Below are positions 1 to 44,385 of a stretch of DNA of 44,385 nt, in pieces (position 1 is the stretch's first letter; the number at the start of each line of letters is the position of its first letter). A program made the translations under genes and the position numbers. Source of the DNA: Escherichia phage K1-5; the sequence record NC_008152.1, one strand, 5' to 3'. Under the pieces are notes generated by a model. The model was not told the origin of the DNA and searched no databases. It was given only the letters and a program-made list of their open reading frames with translations.

Positions 1-234
1 TCGCCCTCGCCCTCGCCGGGTTGTCCCCATAGGGTGGCCTGAGGGAATCCGTCTTCGACGGGCAGGGCTGATGTACTCCTTGTCTAGTACAAGGGAGGCG
101 GAGGGAACGCCTAGGGAGGCCTAGGAATGGCTTAGTGGTGGACAAGGTGATTACCTTAGTGAAGCCTCTTAGTGCATTCCTGAGGCCATTCAGGGCGTTT
201 ATGAGGGATTGACAGGGTGTGAGGGCGTGGGCTA
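1..234. repeat. Left direct terminal repeat (234 bp), identical to 44152..44385
   Basis: First 234 nt (tcgccctcgccctcgccggg...gagggcgtgggcta) recur exactly at the right end in the same orientation; typical terminal redundancy of T7-like genomes. Confidence 0.95.
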
Positions 235-237
235 TCT
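209..237 (+). promoter_or_regulatory. Candidate host sigma70 early promoter (TTGACA -35, weak -10)
   Basis: TTGACA at 209..214, 17-bp spacer, ctatct/tatctg -10-like; weak -10. Confidence 0.25.
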
Positions 238-608
238 GTTCCTTTGCTCCTCACTTCGTTCGTCGCTGCGGTAGCCTGATGTGTACCTTAGGTTATTCCT
301 TGATGGATAGCTTAGGTTAGCCTTAGTGGATTACCTTAGTTAAAGCCTTAGTGCTTCACTTAGTATCAGCTTAGTAGTGTACCTTAGTAAGTCTTAGTGT
401 CTTCTCTTAGTGATTGCACATGCAAGCATGTAAGATGCTAATAGGTCGCGGTCGGCAGACCGCTAAAGAAAGAGAATGGTAATAAGATGCAGTAGGAGGA
501 ACACCAGAAGCCTAGCCAACCTAAGCTATCCTAGCTCTATATCTATTGCTTTTCCTTAGTCTAACACGTTAGACAACCTATCTTATTCTTAGTGATGGTA
601 ACTTAGTG

Positions 609-637
609 TTGACAAGATAATCTTAGTGTAATACTAT
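609..637 (+). promoter_or_regulatory. Candidate host sigma70 early promoter
   Basis: TTGACA 609..614, 17-bp spacer, TACTAT 632..637; upstream of first early ORFs. Confidence 0.4.
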
Positions 638-780
638 GCATCACGTAGGCGGTGCTGAGGCACCTAGTAGCCAGCTAGTAAGGCATACGAAGAGACTAGC
701 GCTTACATTGCTCTTTAACAATTTGCTTAGTGTAACCTATGTATGCCGTGGTTAACTACTTATTGAATGAGGTATTAACT

Positions 781-6140: not shown

Positions 6141-6182
6141 CCTTCCTCTTATTACCACTCAGAGGAAGGGCAGACCTAGGTT

Positions 6183-8372: not shown

Positions 8373-8387
8373 TTAGTGTATTTATCA

Positions 8388-8413
8388 GGCTTGTCTCACA
8401 TGTGAGACAGGCT
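8388..8413. promoter_or_regulatory. Extended hairpin around palindrome copy 3
   Basis: caggcttGTCTCACATGTGAGACaggctc; follows the primase/helicase stop. Confidence 0.6.
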
Positions 8414-8447
8414 CTTATTAAGTACATTAAATAACTGGAGATTGATT

Positions 8448-13353: not shown

Positions 13354-13373
13354 TTACTAGACACTATAGAACA
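13353..13373 (+). promoter_or_regulatory. Phage RNAP promoter variant
   Basis: attactagacactatagaaca. Confidence 0.45.
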
Positions 13374-13522
13374 ATAGGTCGGCTTAGTTCGGCCTATGAT
13401 TGTAAAGTGTTGTTGATGTTGAACCATTGTGCATCTTGCACAACCCGATACCGTATAGGGCTTTCTAGTGAGTACATGCTTGTGCTCAGTACAAAGCTAA
13501 CTGACAATAGGAGACTAAATAA

Positions 13523-15034: not shown

Positions 15035-15093
15035 TAATAGCAGGTGTTGCCTCTGTTAGTCCTAGCTGACTATCACGCTCACCTCATCTAATG

Positions 15094-15126
15094 CCCTGTC
15101 TGCCTTAGTGTAGGCAGGGTCTTTTG
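15094..15126 (+). terminator. Hairpin plus T-run terminator
   Basis: ccctgtctgc-cttagt-gtaggcaggg followed by tcttttg; same architecture as the post-capsid terminator. Confidence 0.55.
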
Positions 15127-19633: not shown

Positions 19634-20157
19634 TACGTCCAGCCTCCTTCCTAGATATTCCTGAGATTATAAACCTTGGGAATAAATATGTGGAAGAGGA
19701 AGTCAAGGTTGTAGCCCACCACTCAGCCTCATGGAATGCAGAACAAAGTGCCATAACCTTTGTGCATCTCTTAATAGAGACCCACCACTCAGCCTCATGG
19801 AATGCAGAACAAAGTGCACATAACCTTTGTGCATCTCTTAGTAGAGAAGATTTATCCCTATGGGTTGCTGTAGATGAAGGGCAGATTGTAGGGTTCCTGT
19901 GGGCTGGCTATCACGAGTTGGCCCCTTGGACACCTGTAAGAGTTGCCTCTGACATTCTCTTTTATATTATACCAGAGAGGCGAGGAACACTACTTGGTAT
20001 GCGTCTCATCAAAGCCCTAAAGCAATGGGCTAGTGATAATGAATGCTCTGAGGTTCGCCTGTCTATCGCCTCTGGTATTAATGAAGAACGTGTCGGACGT
20101 ATGTATAAGCGACTTGGCTTTGAACCGTTTGGCACTGTGTATAACCTGAAGTTCTAA
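19630..20157 (+). CDS. GNAT-family N-acetyltransferase-like protein with an internal 22-aa tandem duplication
   Basis: Track ORF 19603; C-terminal IIPERRGTLLGMRLIKAL...SGINEERVGRMYKRLGFEP fits the GNAT motif A/B pattern; duplicated HHSASWNAEQSA block. Confidence 0.55.
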   Translation: MIRPASFLDIPEIINLGNKYVEEEVKVVAHHSASWNAEQSAITFVHLLIETHHSASWNAEQSAHNLCASLSREDLSLWVAVDEGQIVGFLWAGYHELAPWTPVRVASDILFYIIPERRGTLLGMRLIKALKQWASDNECSEVRLSIASGINEERVGRMYKRLGFEPFGTVYNLKF

Positions 20158-31007: not shown

Positions 31008-31037
31008 AAGGCTTGTCTCACATGTGAGACAGGTCTT
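31008..31037. promoter_or_regulatory. Extended hairpin around palindrome copy 5
   Basis: aaggcttGTCTCACATGTGAGACaggtcttt; between gp15-like and gp16-like genes. Confidence 0.6.
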
Positions 31038-31061
31038 TATGATAGGCACTATGGAGGAATT

Positions 31062-35218: not shown

Positions 35219-35413
35219 ATGATTAACTCCGAACTGGTAGATAGTGGTGTGAAGCTTGCGCCACCTGCACTCATATCAGGTGGGTACTTCCTCGGTATCA
35301 GTTGGGATAATTGGGTGTTAATAGCAACATTCATTTATACCGTGTTGCAAATTGGGGACTGGTTTTATAATAAGTTCAAGATTTGGAGGGAGAAGCGTGA
35401 GCGTACACAATAA
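35219..35413 (+). CDS. Class II holin (T7 gp17.5-like)
   Basis: 64 aa; AAGGAGG RBS; IYTVLQIG with charged C-terminus resembles T7 holin AYTVVQIG...; directly before the small terminase gene as in T7. Confidence 0.75.
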   Translation: MINSELVDSGVKLAPPALISGGYFLGISWDNWVLIATFIYTVLQIGDWFYNKFKIWREKRERTQ

Positions 35414-35696
35414 ACATGCAGCTACAGAGGACGAGGTTGGCATTCTGCATGGTGCTATTACCAAAATCTTCAATAAGAAAGCACAGGCAATACTGGACAC
35501 TATAGAAGAAGACCCTGATGCAGCATTACATTTAGTGTCTGGTAAGGATATTGGTGCGATGTGTAAGTGGGTTCTTGATAACGGCATTACCGCCACACCT
35601 GCTGCACAGCAGGAAGAGTCCAAGTTATCTAAGCGCCTCAAGGCTATCCGAGAGGCATCCAGTGGTAAGATAATTCAATTCACTAAGGAGGATTGA
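35397..35696 (+). CDS. Terminase small subunit (gp18-like)
   Basis: Track ORF 35352; likely GTG 35397 start after GGAGGGAG; directly upstream of the large subunit; assignment by synteny. Confidence 0.55.
   Translation: MSVHNKHAATEDEVGILHGAITKIFNKKAQAILDTIEEDPDAALHLVSGKDIGAMCKWVLDNGITATPAAQQEESKLSKRLKAIREASSGKIIQFTKED
35488..35508 (+). promoter_or_regulatory. Near-consensus phage promoter embedded in the small terminase gene
   Basis: caatactggacactatagaag; 18 of 21 positions match, all mismatches at the 5' edge. Confidence 0.45.
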
Positions 35697-37755: not shown

Positions 37756-38034
37756 ATGGCTAATGATTATAGTAGTCAACCATTAACAGGTAAGTCTAAG
37801 AGAAAGCAGGTACAACCTGTAAGTGAAGAACTAATGCTTCCGGTGCTCAAAAAAGAGGAAGTTAGTAAGAAAAGCAATGTTATTAATGATGCCACCAAAT
37901 CAGGTAAACAGAAAGGGGCCATGGTGTGCCTTGAAGTGAAAGGTGGTGTATTGAAGATTGCTATCGCGGTTGATGGCAAAGAAGATTCAGAGTGGAAGTT
38001 AGTAACAGTGGAACCAACTGTTAACCCAGTTTAA
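37756..38034 (+). CDS. Hypothetical protein (92 aa), paralogue A
   Basis: Track ORF 37690; ATG 37756 after AGGAGAG; shares KKEE..SK...SGKQKGAMV.LE...IAVA motif with the next ORF. Confidence 0.55.
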   Translation: MANDYSSQPLTGKSKRKQVQPVSEELMLPVLKKEEVSKKSNVINDATKSGKQKGAMVCLEVKGGVLKIAIAVDGKEDSEWKLVTVEPTVNPV

Positions 38035-38052: not shown

Positions 38053-38343
38053 ATGGCTAAATATGGTACTACAGGTTCTGTTACTGGTCAGGCTTTTCGA
38101 GTAAAAGCAGTACAAACTATTGCAACGGCAATCCCGATGCCTGTTGTTAAAGAAGAAGACCTTAAGAGTAAAGACCACCCTATCAACATCAAACATTTAT
38201 CAGGTAAACAGAAAGGTGCAATGGTTGCTCTTGAGAAAGGTGACACAACCTTACATATTGCTGTTGCACGTGGTAGTGAACCCACAGACCCTTGGGATGT
38301 AACTGGTATGGAAAAGGACGCTGTTACTCCAGCAGGGGTATAA
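38053..38343 (+). CDS. Hypothetical protein (96 aa), paralogue B
   Basis: TAAGGAGG RBS; SGKQKGAMVALEKGDTTLHIAVA. Confidence 0.6.
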   Translation: MAKYGTTGSVTGQAFRVKAVQTIATAIPMPVVKEEDLKSKDHPINIKHLSGKQKGAMVALEKGDTTLHIAVARGSEPTDPWDVTGMEKDAVTPAGV

Positions 38344-39264: not shown

Positions 39265-39285
39265 ATTTACTGGACACTATAGAAG
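39265..39285 (+). promoter_or_regulatory. Phage RNAP promoter (perfect consensus) upstream of tailspike cassette
   Basis: atttactggacactatagaag. Confidence 0.8.
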
Positions 39286-39366: not shown

Positions 39367-41265
39367 ATGGCTAAATTAACCAAACCTAATACTGAAGGAA
39401 TCTTGCATAAAGGACAATCTTTGTATGAGTACCTTGATGCGAGAGTTTTAACATCAAAGCCGTTTGGTGCTGCAGGTGACGCCACTACTGATGATACGGA
39501 GGTTATAGCTGCTTCATTAAACTCTCAGAAAGCTGTCACAGTCTCAGATGGTGTATTCTCTAGCTCTGGTATTAACAGTAATTACTGTAACTTAGACGGC
39601 AGGGGTAGTGGCGTGCTAAGTCACCGTTCAAGTACAGGTAACTACTTAGTATTTAACAATCTACGTGCAGGTCGCTTAAGTAATATTACGGTAGAAAGTA
39701 ATAAGGCGACTGATACAACTCAGGGACAGCAGGTATCCCTTGCTGGTGGAAGTGATGTTACTGTAAGTGACGTTAACTTCTCAAACGTTAAAGGTACTGG
39801 TTTCAGTTTAATCGCATACCCTAATGATGCGCCACCTGATGGACTTATGATTAAAGGCATTCGAGGTAGCTATTCCGGCTATGCTACTAATAAGGCAGCC
39901 GGATGCGTACTTGCTGATTCCTCAGTTAACTCCCTCATAGATAACGTCATTGCTAAGAACTACCCTCAGTTCGGAGCAGTAGAGTTGAAAGGTACAGCCA
40001 GTTACAACATAGTCAGTAATGTTATAGGGACAGATTGCCAGCATGTAACTTACAACGGCACTGAAGGGCCAATAGCTCCTTCTAATAACCTTATCAAGGG
40101 GGTGATGGCTAATAACCCTAAGTATGCAGCGGTTGTTGCAGGCAAAGGAAGTACGAACTTAATCTCAGACGTGCTCGTAGATTACTCAACTTCTGATGCT
40201 AGGCAGGCTCATGGTGTTACAGTAGAGGGTTCTGATAACGTCATAAATAATGTGCTTATGTCAGGATGTGATGGTACTAACTCTTTAGGACAAGGGCAGA
40301 CTGCTACAATTGCACGCTTTATAGGTACAGCTAATAACAACTATGCGTCTGTATTTCCTAGCTACAGTGCTACAGGTGTTATTACTTTCGAATCCGGCTC
40401 TACCCGTAACTTCGTAGAGGTAAAGCACCCTGGCAGGAGAAACGACCTTCTCAGTTCTGCTAGTACTATTGACGGTGCAGCTACTATTGACGGCACTAGT
40501 AATAGTAACGTAGTGCACGCACCTGCCTTAGGGCAGTACATAGGTAGTATGTCAGGTAGGTTCGAATGGCGGATTAAGTCCATGTCACTCCCTTCAGGCG
40601 TTCTTACTTCTGCTGATAAGTACAGAATGCTTGGAGATGGTGCTGTGTCATTAGCTGTAGGTGGGGGCACTTCTTCTCAAGTTCGCCTATTTACTTCTGA
40701 TGGTACTTCTCGGACAGTGTCCCTCACCAACGGTAACGTGCGTCTTTCTACCAGTAGCACAGGCTTTTTGCAGTTAGGTGCTGATGCAATGACCCCAGAC
40801 AGTACTGGTACATACGCATTAGGTTCCGCCAGCCGAGCATGGTCTGGCGGTTTTACTCAAGCAGCATTCACTGTTACCTCAGATGCTCGGTGTAAAACAG
40901 AACCTCTTACTATCTCAGATGCCTTACTGGATGCTTGGTCTGAAGTTGACTTTGTGCAGTTTCAGTATTTGGATCGTGTTGAGGAGAAGGGTGCAGACTC
41001 AGCTAGATGGCACTTCGGTATCATCGCTCAGCGAGCTAAGGAGGCTTTCGAACGTCACGGTATAGATGCACATCGCTATGGCTTCTTGTGCTTCGACAGT
41101 TGGGATGATGTATACGAGGAAGATGCCAATGGCTCTCGTAAACTGATTACACCAGCAGGTTCCCGCTACGGTATTCGTTACGAGGAAGTACTGATATTAG
41201 AGGCTGCGTTGATGCGGCGGACTATTAAGCGTATGCAGGAAGCACTAGCTTCCCTGCCTAAGTAA
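39367..41265 (+). CDS. Tailspike 1: beta-helix polysaccharide depolymerase (K5-lyase-like) with C-terminal self-cleaving chaperone domain
   Basis: Track ORF 39307; ATG 39367 gives 632 aa; repetitive beta-helix-like rungs (NVIAKN, NIVSNVIG, NVINNVLMS); C-terminal SDARCK ... HFGIIAQRAKEAF resembles the peptidase S74 intramolecular chaperone. Confidence 0.7.
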   Translation: MAKLTKPNTEGILHKGQSLYEYLDARVLTSKPFGAAGDATTDDTEVIAASLNSQKAVTVSDGVFSSSGINSNYCNLDGRGSGVLSHRSSTGNYLVFNNLRAGRLSNITVESNKATDTTQGQQVSLAGGSDVTVSDVNFSNVKGTGFSLIAYPNDAPPDGLMIKGIRGSYSGYATNKAAGCVLADSSVNSLIDNVIAKNYPQFGAVELKGTASYNIVSNVIGTDCQHVTYNGTEGPIAPSNNLIKGVMANNPKYAAVVAGKGSTNLISDVLVDYSTSDARQAHGVTVEGSDNVINNVLMSGCDGTNSLGQGQTATIARFIGTANNNYASVFPSYSATGVITFESGSTRNFVEVKHPGRRNDLLSSASTIDGAATIDGTSNSNVVHAPALGQYIGSMSGRFEWRIKSMSLPSGVLTSADKYRMLGDGAVSLAVGGGTSSQVRLFTSDGTSRTVSLTNGNVRLSTSSTGFLQLGADAMTPDSTGTYALGSASRAWSGGFTQAAFTVTSDARCKTEPLTISDALLDAWSEVDFVQFQYLDRVEEKGADSARWHFGIIAQRAKEAFERHGIDAHRYGFLCFDSWDDVYEEDANGSRKLITPAGSRYGIRYEEVLILEAALMRRTIKRMQEALASLPK

Positions 41266-41350: not shown

Positions 41351-43786
41351 ATGATTCAAAGACTAGGTTCTTCATTAGTTAAATTCAAGAGTAAAATAGC
41401 AGGTGCAATCTGGCGTAACTTGGATGACAAGCTCACCGAGGTTGTATCGCTTAAAGATTTTGGAGCCAAAGGTGATGGTAAGACAAACGACCAAGATGCA
41501 GTAAATGCAGCGATGGCTTCAGGTAAGAGAATTGACGGTGCTGGTGCTACTTACAAAGTATCATCTTTACCTGATATGGAGCGATTCTATAACACCCGCT
41601 TCGTATGGGAACGTTTAGCAGGTCAACCTCTTTACTATGTGAGTAAAGGTTTTATCAATGGTGAACTATATAAAATCACGGATAACCCTTATTACAATGC
41701 TTGGCCTCAAGACAAAGCGTTTGTATATGAGAACGTGATATATGCACCTTACATGGGTAGTGACCGTCATGGTGTTAGTCGTCTGCATGTATCATGGGTT
41801 AAGTCTGGTGACGATGGTCAAACATGGTCTACTCCAGAGTGGTTAACTGATCTGCATCCAGATTACCCTACAGTGAACTATCATTGTATGAGTATGGGTG
41901 TATGTCGCAACCGTCTGTTTGCCATGATTGAAACACGTACTTTAGCCAAGAACAAACTAACCAATTGTGCATTGTGGGATCGCCCTATGTCTCGTAGTCT
42001 GCATCTTACTGGTGGTATCACTAAGGCTGCAAATCAGCAATATGCAACAATACATGTACCAGATCACGGACTATTCGTGGGCGATTTTGTTAACTTCTCT
42101 AATTCTGCGGTAACAGGTGTATCAGGTGATATGACTGTTGCAACGGTAATAGATAAGGACAACTTCACGGTTCTTACACCTAACCAGCAGACTTCAGATT
42201 TGAATAACGCTGGAAAGAGTTGGCACATGGGTACTTCTTTCCATAAGTCTCCATGGCGTAAGACAGATCTTGGTCTAATCCCTAGTGTCACAGAGGTGCA
42301 TAGCTTTGCTACTATTGATAACAATGGCTTTGTTATGGGCTATCATCAAGGTGATGTAGCTCCACGAGAAGTTGGTCTTTTCTACTTCCCTGATGCTTTC
42401 AATAGCCCATCTAATTATGTTCGTCGTCAGATACCATCTGAGTATGAACCAGATGCGTCAGAGCCATGCATCAAGTACTATGACGGTGTATTATACCTTA
42501 TCACTCGTGGCACTCTTGGTGACAGACTTGGAAGCTCTTTGCATCGTAGTAGAGATATAGGTCAGACTTGGGAGTCACTGAGATTTCCACATAATGTTCA
42601 TCATACTACCCTACCTTTTGCTAAAGTAGGAGATGACCTTATTATGTTTGGTTCAGAACGTGCAGAAAATGAATGGGAAGCAGGTGCACCAGATGATCGT
42701 TACAAGGCATCTTATCCTCGTACCTTCTATGCACGATTGAATGTAAACAATTGGAATGCAGATGATATTGAATGGGTTAACATCACAGACCAAATCTATC
42801 AAGGTGACATTGTGAACTCTAGTGTAGGTGTAGGTTCGGTAGTAGTTAAAGACAGCTACATTTACTATATCTTTGGTGGCGAAAACCATTTCAACCCAAT
42901 GACTTATGGTGACAACAAAGGTAAAGACCCATTTAAAGGTCATGGACACCCTACTGATATATACTGCTATAAGATGCAGATTGCAAATGACAATCGTGTA
43001 TCTCGTAAGTTTACATATGGTGCAACTCCGGGTCAAGCTATACCTACTTTCATGGGTACTGATGGAATACGAAATATCCCTGCACCTTTGTATTTCTCAG
43101 ATAACATTGTTACAGAGGATACTAAAGTTGGACACTTAACACTTAAAGCAAGCACAAGTTCCAATATACGATCTGAAGTGCAGATGGAAGGTGAATATGG
43201 CTTTATTGGCAAGTCTGTTCCAAAGGACAACCCAACTGGTCAACGTTTGATTATTTGTGGTGGAGAAGAGACTTCGTCCTCTTCAGGTGCACAGATAACT
43301 TTGCACGGCTCTAATTCAAGTAAGGCTAATCGTATCACTTATAACGGAAATGAGCACCTATTCCAAGGTGCACCAATCATGCCTGCTGTAGATAACCAGT
43401 TTGCTGCTGGTGGACCTAGTAACCGATTCACTACCATCTACCTAGGTAGTGACCCTGTTACAACTTCAGATGCTGACCACAAGTACAGTATCTCTAGTAT
43501 TAATACCAAGGTGTTAAAGGCTTGGAGCAGGGTTGGTTTTAAACAGTATGGTTTGAATAGTGAAGCAGAGAGGGACCTTGATAGCATACACTTCGGTGTC
43601 TTGGCTCAGGATATTGTAGCTGCTTTTGAAGCTGAAGGGTTGGATGCCATTAAGTATGGAATTGTGTCCTTCGAAGAAGGTAGGTACGGTGTGAGGTATA
43701 GTGAAGTTCTAATACTAGAGGCTGCTTATACTCGTTATCGTTTAGACAAGTTAGAGGAGATGTATGCCACTAATAAAATCAGTTAA
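41351..43786 (+). CDS. Tailspike 2: endosialidase (endo-N-acetylneuraminidase) with C-terminal self-cleaving chaperone domain
   Basis: 811 aa; AGGAGG RBS; two Asp-boxes SGDDGQTW and SRDIGQTW; C-terminal SDADHK ... HFGVLAQDIVAAFEAEG parallels the C-terminus of tailspike 1. Confidence 0.85.
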   Translation: MIQRLGSSLVKFKSKIAGAIWRNLDDKLTEVVSLKDFGAKGDGKTNDQDAVNAAMASGKRIDGAGATYKVSSLPDMERFYNTRFVWERLAGQPLYYVSKGFINGELYKITDNPYYNAWPQDKAFVYENVIYAPYMGSDRHGVSRLHVSWVKSGDDGQTWSTPEWLTDLHPDYPTVNYHCMSMGVCRNRLFAMIETRTLAKNKLTNCALWDRPMSRSLHLTGGITKAANQQYATIHVPDHGLFVGDFVNFSNSAVTGVSGDMTVATVIDKDNFTVLTPNQQTSDLNNAGKSWHMGTSFHKSPWRKTDLGLIPSVTEVHSFATIDNNGFVMGYHQGDVAPREVGLFYFPDAFNSPSNYVRRQIPSEYEPDASEPCIKYYDGVLYLITRGTLGDRLGSSLHRSRDIGQTWESLRFPHNVHHTTLPFAKVGDDLIMFGSERAENEWEAGAPDDRYKASYPRTFYARLNVNNWNADDIEWVNITDQIYQGDIVNSSVGVGSVVVKDSYIYYIFGGENHFNPMTYGDNKGKDPFKGHGHPTDIYCYKMQIANDNRVSRKFTYGATPGQAIPTFMGTDGIRNIPAPLYFSDNIVTEDTKVGHLTLKASTSSNIRSEVQMEGEYGFIGKSVPKDNPTGQRLIICGGEETSSSSGAQITLHGSNSSKANRITYNGNEHLFQGAPIMPAVDNQFAAGGPSNRFTTIYLGSDPVTTSDADHKYSISSINTKVLKAWSRVGFKQYGLNSEAERDLDSIHFGVLAQDIVAAFEAEGLDAIKYGIVSFEEGRYGVRYSEVLILEAAYTRYRLDKLEEMYATNKIS

Positions 43787-43914: not shown

Positions 43915-43975
43915 CAGGTTAATATCTTAGTATAAACAAGGGCAGACTTAGGTTTGTCCTTAGTGTATTCCAAAG
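43915..43975. repeat. Three CTTAG(T/G) repeats immediately left of the right terminal repeat
   Basis: tcttagtat, acttaggtt, ccttagtgt at about 43925, 43946, 43958. Confidence 0.5.
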
Positions 43976-43983
43976 GAGGTAAC

Positions 43984-44112
43984 ATGCTGAAAGATGGTTG
44001 GGTTTCATATGACCCTACAGACCCTAAGAATTGGCTACAGGTTATCGCTATAGCTTGTGCAGGTAGCCTATTGGCTGCCCTGATGTATTCATTATGGATG
44101 TACACAAAGTAA
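43984..44112 (+). CDS. Small membrane protein (42 aa) at right genome end
   Basis: AAAGGAGG RBS 5 nt before ATG; VIAIACAGSLLAALMYSLWM is a TM helix; ends about 40 bp before the terminal repeat. Confidence 0.4.
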   Translation: MLKDGWVSYDPTDPKNWLQVIAIACAGSLLAALMYSLWMYTK

Positions 44113-44151
44113 CCAAAGTCAAAATTTTGATGTAGGCGTGTGTCAGCTCTC

Positions 44152-44385
44152 TCGCCCTCGCCCTCGCCGGGTTGTCCCCATAGGGTGGCCTGAGGGAATC
44201 CGTCTTCGACGGGCAGGGCTGATGTACTCCTTGTCTAGTACAAGGGAGGCGGAGGGAACGCCTAGGGAGGCCTAGGAATGGCTTAGTGGTGGACAAGGTG
44301 ATTACCTTAGTGAAGCCTCTTAGTGCATTCCTGAGGCCATTCAGGGCGTTTATGAGGGATTGACAGGGTGTGAGGGCGTGGGCTA
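44152..44385. repeat. Right direct terminal repeat (234 bp)
   Basis: Exact copy of 1..234 read by eye; window ends exactly at the repeat end. Confidence 0.95.

Follow-up and report, generated by a model that had tools for sequence, protein, structure and literature searches.

Oriented CTTAGT(G) repeats at the genome ends of phage K1-5, a probable counterpart of the T7 short-repeat arrays

The first 640 bp of the genome of Escherichia phage K1-5 (sequence record NC_008152.1) contain a short motif, CTTAGT or CTTAGTG, repeated many times and always in the same orientation, which raises the question of what these copies are for. The original prediction, made from the sequence alone, was that they are the likely functional analogue of the 7-bp repeats found next to both terminal repeats of T7. 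In T7, arrays of this sort have been recognised from the time its sequence appeared; we take the heptamer arrays of T7 and T3 to be the SRL and SRR of the T7 literature. The stretch analysed here (the window, 44,385 bp) is the complete linear genome of a K1-5-like Vectrevirus (Autographiviridae, Molineuxvirinae), and its nearest database relatives are Vectrevirus phages with at most 96% identity. Both a repeat search and a prefix/suffix comparison showed that it is bounded by an exact direct terminal repeat (DTR) of 234 bp, positions 1-234 being identical to 44152-44385. On the basis of a shared junction architecture, orientation, enrichment and position of an ATCTGTT heptamer, we conclude that the CTTAGT(G) copies are very probably (probability of about 0.9) the SP6/K1-5-group counterpart of the T7-type short-repeat arrays that flank the DTR in the concatemer. 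That they function in concatemer maturation and packaging is a more tentative proposal (0.45-0.5).

Both strands of the window together carry 58 copies of CTTAGT, versus 30.5 ± 4.5 after shuffling (0 of 100 shuffles reached 58). Within the unique genome (1-44151), the first 800 bp hold 16 copies on the + strand and none on the - strand; the remainder (about 43 kb) holds 14 on the + strand and 23 on the - strand. An unbiased k-mer screen returned CTTAGT as the top strand-specific 6-mer of region 1-700, with 15 copies observed versus 0.33 expected (Poisson P = 3.4e-20), and CTTAGTG was found there 10 times versus 0.10 expected. The ends are thus clearly enriched relative to the genome-wide expectation, a comparison that had been named in advance as the one able to refute the prediction. 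The copy number was somewhat overstated: the announced 20 or so CTTAGT(G) copies in the first 640 bp come down to 15 exact CTTAGT plus two CTTAGG, i.e. 17, all within 125-640, and a figure near 20 is obtained only if CCTAGG and CCTAGC variants are counted in. With the relaxed pattern C[CT]TAG[CGT], region 1-700 contains 22 matches on the + strand and 3 on the - strand; CCTAG by itself occurs there 5 times versus 0.46 expected.

All elements of the leader lie on the + strand. The dense array (287-411), delimited by k-mer and position counts, comprises ten copies, as had been claimed for 286..410, save that the first two (starting at 287 and 311) are CTTAGG; the eight CTTAGT(G) start at 322, 335, 347, 359, 370, 383, 393 and 406. 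The start-to-start spacing is 24 bp for the first pair, then 11, 13, 12, 12, 11, 13, 10 and 13 bp. To the left, inside the DTR, three CTTAGTG are found at 131, 155 and 168 (131-174), preceded by two CCTAGG variants at 110 and 120 (110-125) which, being palindromic, are of ambiguous strand. To the right come three CCTAGC/CCTAAGC variants at 511, 520 and 530 (511-535), present as the same triplet in SP6 and K1E, and four further copies at 555, 588, 602 and 622 (555-628). The last three of these bracket or enter the first early promoter, a sigma-70-type TTGACA-17 nt-TACTAT sequence at 609-637 with 10/12 consensus matches. At the genome's other end, the three copies reported just inside the right terminal repeat (44282, 44306 and 44319) are nothing but 131, 155 and 168 seen again in the identical DTR. 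What had been missed is the true right-flank pair, formed by CTTAGT at 43926 and CTTAGTG at 43959 (43926-43965, + strand). These two are 187-226 bp to the left of the right DTR, which gives 2 copies versus 0.13 expected in the final 300 bp of unique sequence (P = 0.008). In sum, three copies are inside the DTR and ten directly right of it, with 4-7 more up to and into the first early promoter and 2 left of the right DTR.

The array was compared with those of SP6, K1E, Proteus phage Pm5460 (Acadevirus), Klebsiella phage VR702 and 12 IMG/VR contigs. The latter came from a scan with the 15-mer GTGGGCTATCTGTTC, which gave 120 loci, mostly due to chance; the 12 that were genuine SP6-like junctions were used. 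The same core, orientation and layout were found in all of them, and Vectrevirus, Zindervirus and Acadevirus have this arrangement in common. The comparison with the SP6 and K1E ends, which the prediction had called for, also recovered the right-flank pair, in the same place in SP6, K1E and Pm5460. The DTR of SP6 is 174 bp and that of K1E 288 bp; CTTAGT is present inside the DTR in 3 copies in K1E and in 1 copy each in SP6 and Pm5460. The first 800 bp contain 12 copies versus 0.24 expected in SP6, 14 versus 0.32 in K1E and 10 versus 0.30 in Pm5460, with no - strand copy in any of the three, and the last 300 bp contain two copies in each.

When the 16 arrays were aligned, the mean pairwise identity was 0.865 for core columns versus 0.557 for spacer columns (P = 5.6e-12). 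The alignment was anchored on the motif, which somewhat inflates this contrast, but the raw sequences still show it plainly: between SP6 and K1-5 the spacers are essentially unrelated and the cores invariant. The extended consensus is approximately tayCTTAGTg, and neighbouring copies are 10-13 bp apart, most commonly 12 (101 adjacent pairs over all genomes). As judged from these sequences, selection appears to act on the core and the spacing only, not on the sequence of the spacers. The last array copy always adjoins a conserved ATTGCA-palindrome. The array is separated from the DTR by a pyrimidine-rich spacer (241-286, + strand, 68% C+T) made of short repeats of the CTCACT/GCTCC type, and its length varies among relatives. 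It can be written as CTCACT/GCTCCTCACT units, and is expanded in tandem about four-fold in the IMG/VR relative L077.

To see how far the array extends beyond this group, the pattern CTTAGT-N6-7-CTTAGT-N6-CTTAGT-N6-CTTAGT was searched for in 185,579 bacterial and archaeal genomes and in IMG/VR. Among the at least 229 matches listed, one spacer or more is repeated in 212, and in 147 the three spacers are all the same. Among the matches listed, 17 have three different spacers and five of them are SP6-like, all from IMG/VR; ATCTGTT is nearby in four of the five, the fifth (L282) being too near a contig end to judge. Satellites, decoys and other phage groups carrying the array were considered and set aside, since among the matches listed the other 12 with three different spacers are in unrelated genomes and have near-identical spacers.

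The second constant element of the junction is ATCTGTT, which we take to be the conserved heptamer of the class II pause/termination signals of T7 RNA polymerase (RNAP), as found at the concatemer junction. It occurs only once on the + strand of the whole window, at 234-240, where it straddles the right edge of the DTR. Every SP6-like relative examined reads GGGCTA, then, across the right DTR boundary, TCTGTT. The class II motif has seven conserved bases and the T7 concatemer-junction site is its natural example (preprint, 10.64898/2026.02.12.705533). We infer from the sequence that ATCTGTT at 234-240 would also act as a pause site. A perfect TTGACA lies inside the DTR at 209-214 (+ strand), 18 nt upstream of TATCTG (part of ATCTGTT), a position kept in SP6, K1E and Pm5460. 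The T7 junction pause site is able to act as an E. coli promoter (2026 preprint), and 209-240 may be a weak rightward promoter of the host type, facing and reading into the array.

In T7 the DTR is 160 bp long with three CCTAAAG copies, at 17, 41 and 60. ATCTGTT is at 161-167 (DTR+1), its only + strand copy in that genome, and is followed by an array of 13-bp period at 175-332 (8 exact copies, 13 with a degenerate pattern). Two exact and five degenerate copies are found at 39621-39700, 78-157 bp left of the right DTR; all T7 copies have one orientation, and the first 800 bp carry none on the - strand. T3 has the same plan, with a C(C/T)TAAAG core and ATCTGTT at DTR+1. In K1F, a 178-bp DTR is followed by TATCTGTA; the cores are its own (CCTACAGT and CATAAGTC), and the right DTR has three copies to its left. 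phiKMV has short repeats right of the DTR, with unrelated cores and without ATCTGTT. K1-5 thus shares with T7 and T3 an oriented short core, in about 10-14 copies of 12-13 bp period, just right of the left DTR, in an array placed upstream of host-RNAP early promoters, one of which overlaps a copy, and the enrichment statistics are similar. With T7 it also shares three copies in the DTR, a few left of the right DTR, and ATCTGTT at the right DTR edge. All the sequence features by which we define a T7-type array, namely an oriented periodic core, copies in the DTR and on both flanks, ATCTGTT at the DTR edge and conservation confined to the core, are present in K1-5. The analogy originally drawn thus holds for the architecture, now compared directly with T7, and fails for the right-end evidence then cited, which was only the DTR duplicate.

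Differences are also apparent. The core is CTTAGT(G) in K1-5 and C(C/T)TAAAG in T7 and T3, with a period of about 12 bp in K1-5 and 13 bp in T7. The K1-5 array starts 53 bp from the DTR, after the variable CT-rich tract, and is T-rich; that of T7 starts at 15 bp and is A/C-rich and G-poor. The right flank of K1-5, down to 2 copies and with a small open reading frame (ORF) inserted before the DTR, is weaker than that of T7. SP6/K1-5-type phage promoters (GGACACTATAGAAG) are present in the window, but none of the phiOL/phiOR type was found beside the arrays: there is no GGACACTATAGAAG match with three mismatches or fewer in 1-2020 or after 39285. In Pm5460, a promoter-like CACTATAGAAG is found near 590. 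We regard phiOL/phiOR promoters as an accessory, not a defining, feature of T7-type arrays.

At the right end, the pair at 43926-43965 brackets a hairpin, AAGGGCAGAC-TTAG-GTTTGTCCTT (43938-43961), whose 10-bp stem is paired in 120 out of 120 stem cells in 12 distinct relatives, with one invariant G.U pair and two pairs showing compensatory changes. The loop is TTAG, CTAG, CTAT, TTAT or TTGG depending on the relative. Because it is made of a stem-closing pair and this variable loop, the CTTAGG at 43947 does not count as a genuine member of the repeat. Between the pair and the conserved block at the junction lies a small membrane-type ORF of 42 aa (43984-44112, + strand). Pm5460 lacks this ORF, and its pair is only some 62 bp away from the end of the genome, a distance similar to that in T7; the other relatives carry different small ORFs at this site, from one to three of them, and a CTTAGT(G/C) followed by a ribosome-binding site bounds each. 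Judged from these sequences, the right-end repeats look like surviving units of a right-hand array with small genes inserted in its spacers, and there they may conceivably also act as punctuation in RNA. The variable region, from the tailspike region to the right DTR, is cassette-like in L103, L104, L005, L016, L026 and L125, with ORFs preceded by AAGGAGG, and L005 has an insertion of about 80 bp within the hairpin loop.

What reads the repeats? The array is non-coding (its sole ORF is a 33-aa chance ORF) and is neither a simple tandem repeat of the variable-number type nor a coding repeat, as units called by TRF match only at 71-78%, with up to 21% indels, and the spacers are all different. 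No secondary structure was detected in comparison with shuffled sequences (z of -0.18 for the + strand and +0.49 for the - strand) and an Rfam search of the array gave no match; on these grounds a structured-RNA or single-stranded-DNA reading of the array was rejected and a sequence read on duplex DNA is favoured. An oriented, even, core-conserved and unstructured non-coding array is the usual signature of cooperative head-to-tail binding of a protein to duplex DNA. Two other ideas were discarded. A Rho-utilisation (rut) site could be thought of for the C-rich, G-poor T7 array, but the K1-5 array is 21% G and 17% C. The likeness of CACTAAG, the reverse complement of the motif, to the phage promoter core CACTATAG was judged to be numerology, the -12 to -8 specificity region being absent.

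We propose that the copies would be head-to-tail double-stranded DNA binding sites for a phage-encoded, clade-specific protein, most plausibly the PF11123 small terminase, which would coat both DTR flanks in the concatemer. Late transcripts arriving from the right would pause at ATCTGTT, at the right DTR edge, and the protein-coated array just downstream of the pause would help in recruiting, orienting or arresting terminase so that the ends can form. The packaging motor, moving from right to left as that of T7 does, would traverse the array in the last 640 bp before the left-end cut. No consensus-strength phage promoter is found downstream of that at 39272-39285, and between 39285 and the right end the + strand has one weak terminator-like site (42064) and no convincing terminator, so that late transcription from that promoter can plausibly reach the junction. 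The gene of the candidate binder is at 35397-35693 (+ strand); its product is 100% identical to K1E gp39 and matches Pfam PF11123 (E = 3e-16), the family to which T7 gp18 also belongs. We infer, and only infer, that it could be the trans-acting binder of the repeats. No solved relative of the K1-5 or T7 small terminase was found in the PDB, and an AlphaFold2 (AF2) model made with no alignment was all-helical, of pLDDT 59 and uninterpretable. Small terminases are 92% identical between T7 and T3, which have the same core, versus 52% between T7 and K1F, which have different ones. The gp18 proteins of T3 and T7, phages with a shared repeat core, can replace each other and have 92-93% identity (PMC3276506).

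Several points weigh against a packaging role or against this binder. The same co-variation with the core is shown by gp5, gp6, gp15, gp16 and gp18.5, probably because of T3/T7 mosaic blocks, so that the small terminase is not singled out; and the T3/T7 packaging specificity resides in gp19, not in gp18 (PMC3276506). A 12-13 bp period is out of helical phase, and simple wrapping by one face around a terminase ring does not fit. A rigid array-to-cut geometry is made unlikely by the variation among relatives: arrays have 7 to 10 copies, gained or lost as whole units, and the first copy is found at +47 to +115 from the pause site/DTR edge, depending on how long the CT-rich tract is. On the right flank there are just two copies, in gene-boundary and ribosome-binding-site contexts, and the copies of the early promoter (588, 602 and 622, around the TTGACA at 609-614) are left unexplained by packaging. 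In the literature searched, which did not extend to the original T7 sequence report, no function was assigned to the T7 arrays. Nor, in the same literature (the SP6 and K1-5 genome papers being outside it), was there a description of the SP6, K1-5 and K1E repeats or a test of the T7 arrays; the SP6/K1-5 genome papers may mention the repeats already.

The copies around the early promoter lead to a different explanation, in which the repeats mark the approximately 640 bp that enter the cell first and are bound by an ejected core protein or a host factor, which would protect or anchor the entering end or tune the first host-RNAP promoter. About 90% of the copies are indeed in the non-coding leader upstream of or inside the first sigma-70 promoter, the homologous site of Pm5460 bears an annotated host promoter, and in every relative examined (SP6, K1E, Pm5460 and VR702) a CTTAGTG adjoins the TTGACA -35 hexamer and/or sits in the promoter spacer; the T7 A1 promoter likewise overlaps a CTTAAAG. 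Furthermore, the core proteins gp15 and gp16 co-vary with the motif in T7, T3 and K1F as well as the small terminase does. However, copies are also found left of the right DTR, which enters last, most are 200-500 bp away from the promoter, the second early promoter (1193) has none, and no such DNA-binding activity was found documented in the literature searched. We therefore consider this explanation unlikely.

A second possibility keeps the link with packaging and dispenses with a coating protein. The heptamers would be polar signals for the motor itself: on its way from right to left, terminase would meet 17-22 same-sense copies in the last 640 bp, a clade-specific, cosQ- or KOPS-like countdown of the approaching end by which the motor would be slowed and precise cutting at the left DTR boundary licensed. 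Each lineage of the Autographiviridae would then have co-evolved its own core (CTTAGTG, CCTAAAG or CCTACAGT). We hold this to be quite unlikely.

Could the signal be read on RNA instead? The repeats would then be CUUAGUG sites for an RNA-binding protein, or intergenic punctuation, and their single orientation would be explained, all copies being on the transcribed strand. At the right end the motif lies at gene boundaries, supplies stop codons and precedes the ribosome-binding sites of small ORFs in many relatives, and it flanks the 43938-43961 hairpin, which the G.U pairs of its stem designate as an RNA hairpin on + strand transcripts. That hairpin may be a transcript-stabilising or processing element; it sits between the last two small genes and has no U-tract, and is thus not an intrinsic terminator. 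The conserved TTGACA of the DTR could drive transcription through the array, and hairpin loops around 13383 and 15104 contain CTTAGT, as does an RNase III-like site at 726. Against these observations, the array is upstream of the first recognised early promoter and just past a pause/termination motif, so that transcripts are probably low, its RNA has neither structure nor an Rfam match, and the transcribed genome (43 kb) shows no enrichment of the motif, as seen from the strand counts given above. The chance that the array is an RNA signal is accordingly small.

It is also conceivable that the repeats have no function of their own and are by-products, either of slippage or unequal crossing-over in a tolerant leader or of the use of microhomology 'linkers' by gene cassettes. 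The change of copy number by whole units (L025 lacks 25 bp, i.e. two units), the tandem expansion of the neighbouring CT-rich tract in L077, and the CTTAGT(G/C) that bound the different small ORFs of the right end, as if these had been inserted between repeats, would all agree with such an origin. But neutral slippage would homogenise the spacers too, as it does in unrelated 12-bp tandem repeats; here the core is invariant and the spacers go down to 56% identity across genera whose proteins are 77-86% identical, orientation, spacing and position are all kept, and independent lineages (T7/T3 and K1F) maintain the same layout with other cores. An origin as mere by-products is hence decidedly improbable. 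A replication role, as a cluster of primase sites or a secondary origin near the left end, is very improbable indeed: the right half of the T7 array (units AAAGACCA, AAAGACCC and AAAGACAC) presumably carries T7 primase sites on the lagging-strand template, and the T7 left end is annotated with a secondary origin at phiOL, but the left half of the T7 array has no primase sites, the right-flank copies would be unexplained, there is no phage promoter near the K1-5 array (the nearest weak match is at 2021), and the CTTAGTG core lacks GCA, the trinucleotide of the SP6 primase.

The junction contains other conserved elements. The left DTR includes CCCCATAGGG at 25-34 (+ strand, and again at 44176-44185), just as far from the left end as CCCCCATAGGGGG is in T7; the left part of the DTR is homologous across the phages compared, TCTC... 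being followed by a CCCCATAGGG-type element at an offset identical to that of T7. Similar elements are also found in T3, K1F, SP6 and phiKMV. The CCCCATAGGG element is thus, from its sequence and its place near the left terminus, a family-wide candidate for an end-recognition site. SP6, K1E, Pm5460, T7, T3 and K1F all start with TCTC...; the window starts with TCGCC... and has TC at 44150-44151. By homology, the true DTR may be of 236 bp, the deposited left end being short by 2 nt. Directly left of the right DTR, a 47-bp block, CACAAAGTAACCAAAGTCAAAATTTTGATGTAGGCGTGTGTCAGCTC(TC) (44103-44151, + strand), is near-identical in SP6, K1E, the Proteus phage Pm5460, the Klebsiella phage VR702 and the IMG/VR loci. 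We noticed no non-coding stretch that is better conserved, and the block is a candidate left-end cleavage or recognition site.

Additional features were noted in passing. Right after the array, the palindrome ACATGC-AA-GCATGT (418-431) is replaced in relatives by ATAGCT-AA-AGCTAT, ATAGC-TAC-GCTAT or ACAAGC-AA-GCTTGT, the symmetry being kept and the sequence changed; a second one at 448-463, GCGGTC-GGCA-GACCGC, becomes GCTTGC-TGGAA-GCAAGC in Pm5460. TAAGATGC directly follows the first of these hairpins and is found again at about 483. CTCTTTAACAA(T), presumably the conserved part of T7-type early RNase III sites, is present in three copies (711, 1256 and 1468). The CTTAGTG at 726, within the first of them and conserved in SP6, K1E and VR702, is probably a stem element and not an array member. 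CTTAGT also occupies the loop of a hairpin at about 13375-13395 (AGGTCG-GCTTAGTT-CGGCCT), just after the promoter at 13359, and that of CCCTGTCTGC-CTTAGT-GTAGGCAGGG, which is followed by TCTTTTG (15093-15125) and looks like a terminator. A 32-nt element with the perfect palindrome TGTCTCACATGTGAGACA occurs at 8387-8418 and 31009-31040 (also at 6177 and 9564), the first two copies being 91% identical and 22.6 kb apart. An exact 37-bp direct repeat is found at 19715-19751 and 19781-19817 (spacing 66 bp), and a 36-bp repeat, 83% identical, at 37899-37934 and 38199-38234; the 300-bp spacing of the latter recalls, by its length only, the tandem genes of about 300 bp gp42 and gp43 of SP6. Finally, an 811-aa ORF at 41351-43786 sits where K1E has its annotated endosialidase tailspike, a correspondence of position only.

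The cis-acting sequences for DNA maturation and packaging in T7-type phages are only partly defined, and these phages are workhorses of phage engineering, of the making of transducing particles and of phage therapy, K1-5, K1E and SP6 being so used. The present work contributes the quantitative confirmation of the repeats, the corrected right end, signs of selection on core and spacing, and the existence of lineage-specific cores in a junction plan conserved across subfamilies. An old and vaguely annotated feature of T7 can thereby be put to the test, since its coordinates are now exact, natural variants are at hand, and both a consensus (tayCTTAGTg) and a period (about 12 bp) have been defined. 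In practice, it is advisable to retain 1-640 and 43926-44151 in minimal packaging cassettes or rebooted genomes of the SP6 group as long as the arrays have not proved dispensable.

Outside the T7 group, several known systems resemble these arrays. In iteron and centromere arrays (plasmid iterons, parC-ParR of plasmid R1), about ten direct repeats of roughly one helical turn are likewise in one orientation, with conserved cores and free spacers. The resemblance is one of form only, as the K1-5 array is at a phage genome end and no ParR- or Rep-type gene was identified in K1-5 (the early ORFs not having been systematically screened). The lambda cos site offers an analogy, and no more, in that multiple short sites are found by the terminase cut and their orientation matters: cosB, with its R-sites for gpNu1, is read by the small terminase and cosQ by the arriving motor. 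Lambda has 3 R-sites and an IHF site at fixed distances, and cohesive ends; in K1-5 the 17-22 copies are not at a constant distance from the cut, the ends are a direct terminal repeat, a transcription-pause motif is present, and protein binding is putative. The KOPS of FtsK and the Chi sites of RecBCD are, like CTTAGT(G), strictly oriented short motifs placed where a DNA translocase must change its behaviour; they are dispersed over megabases and their readers are known, whereas the K1-5 motif is packed into 640 bp.

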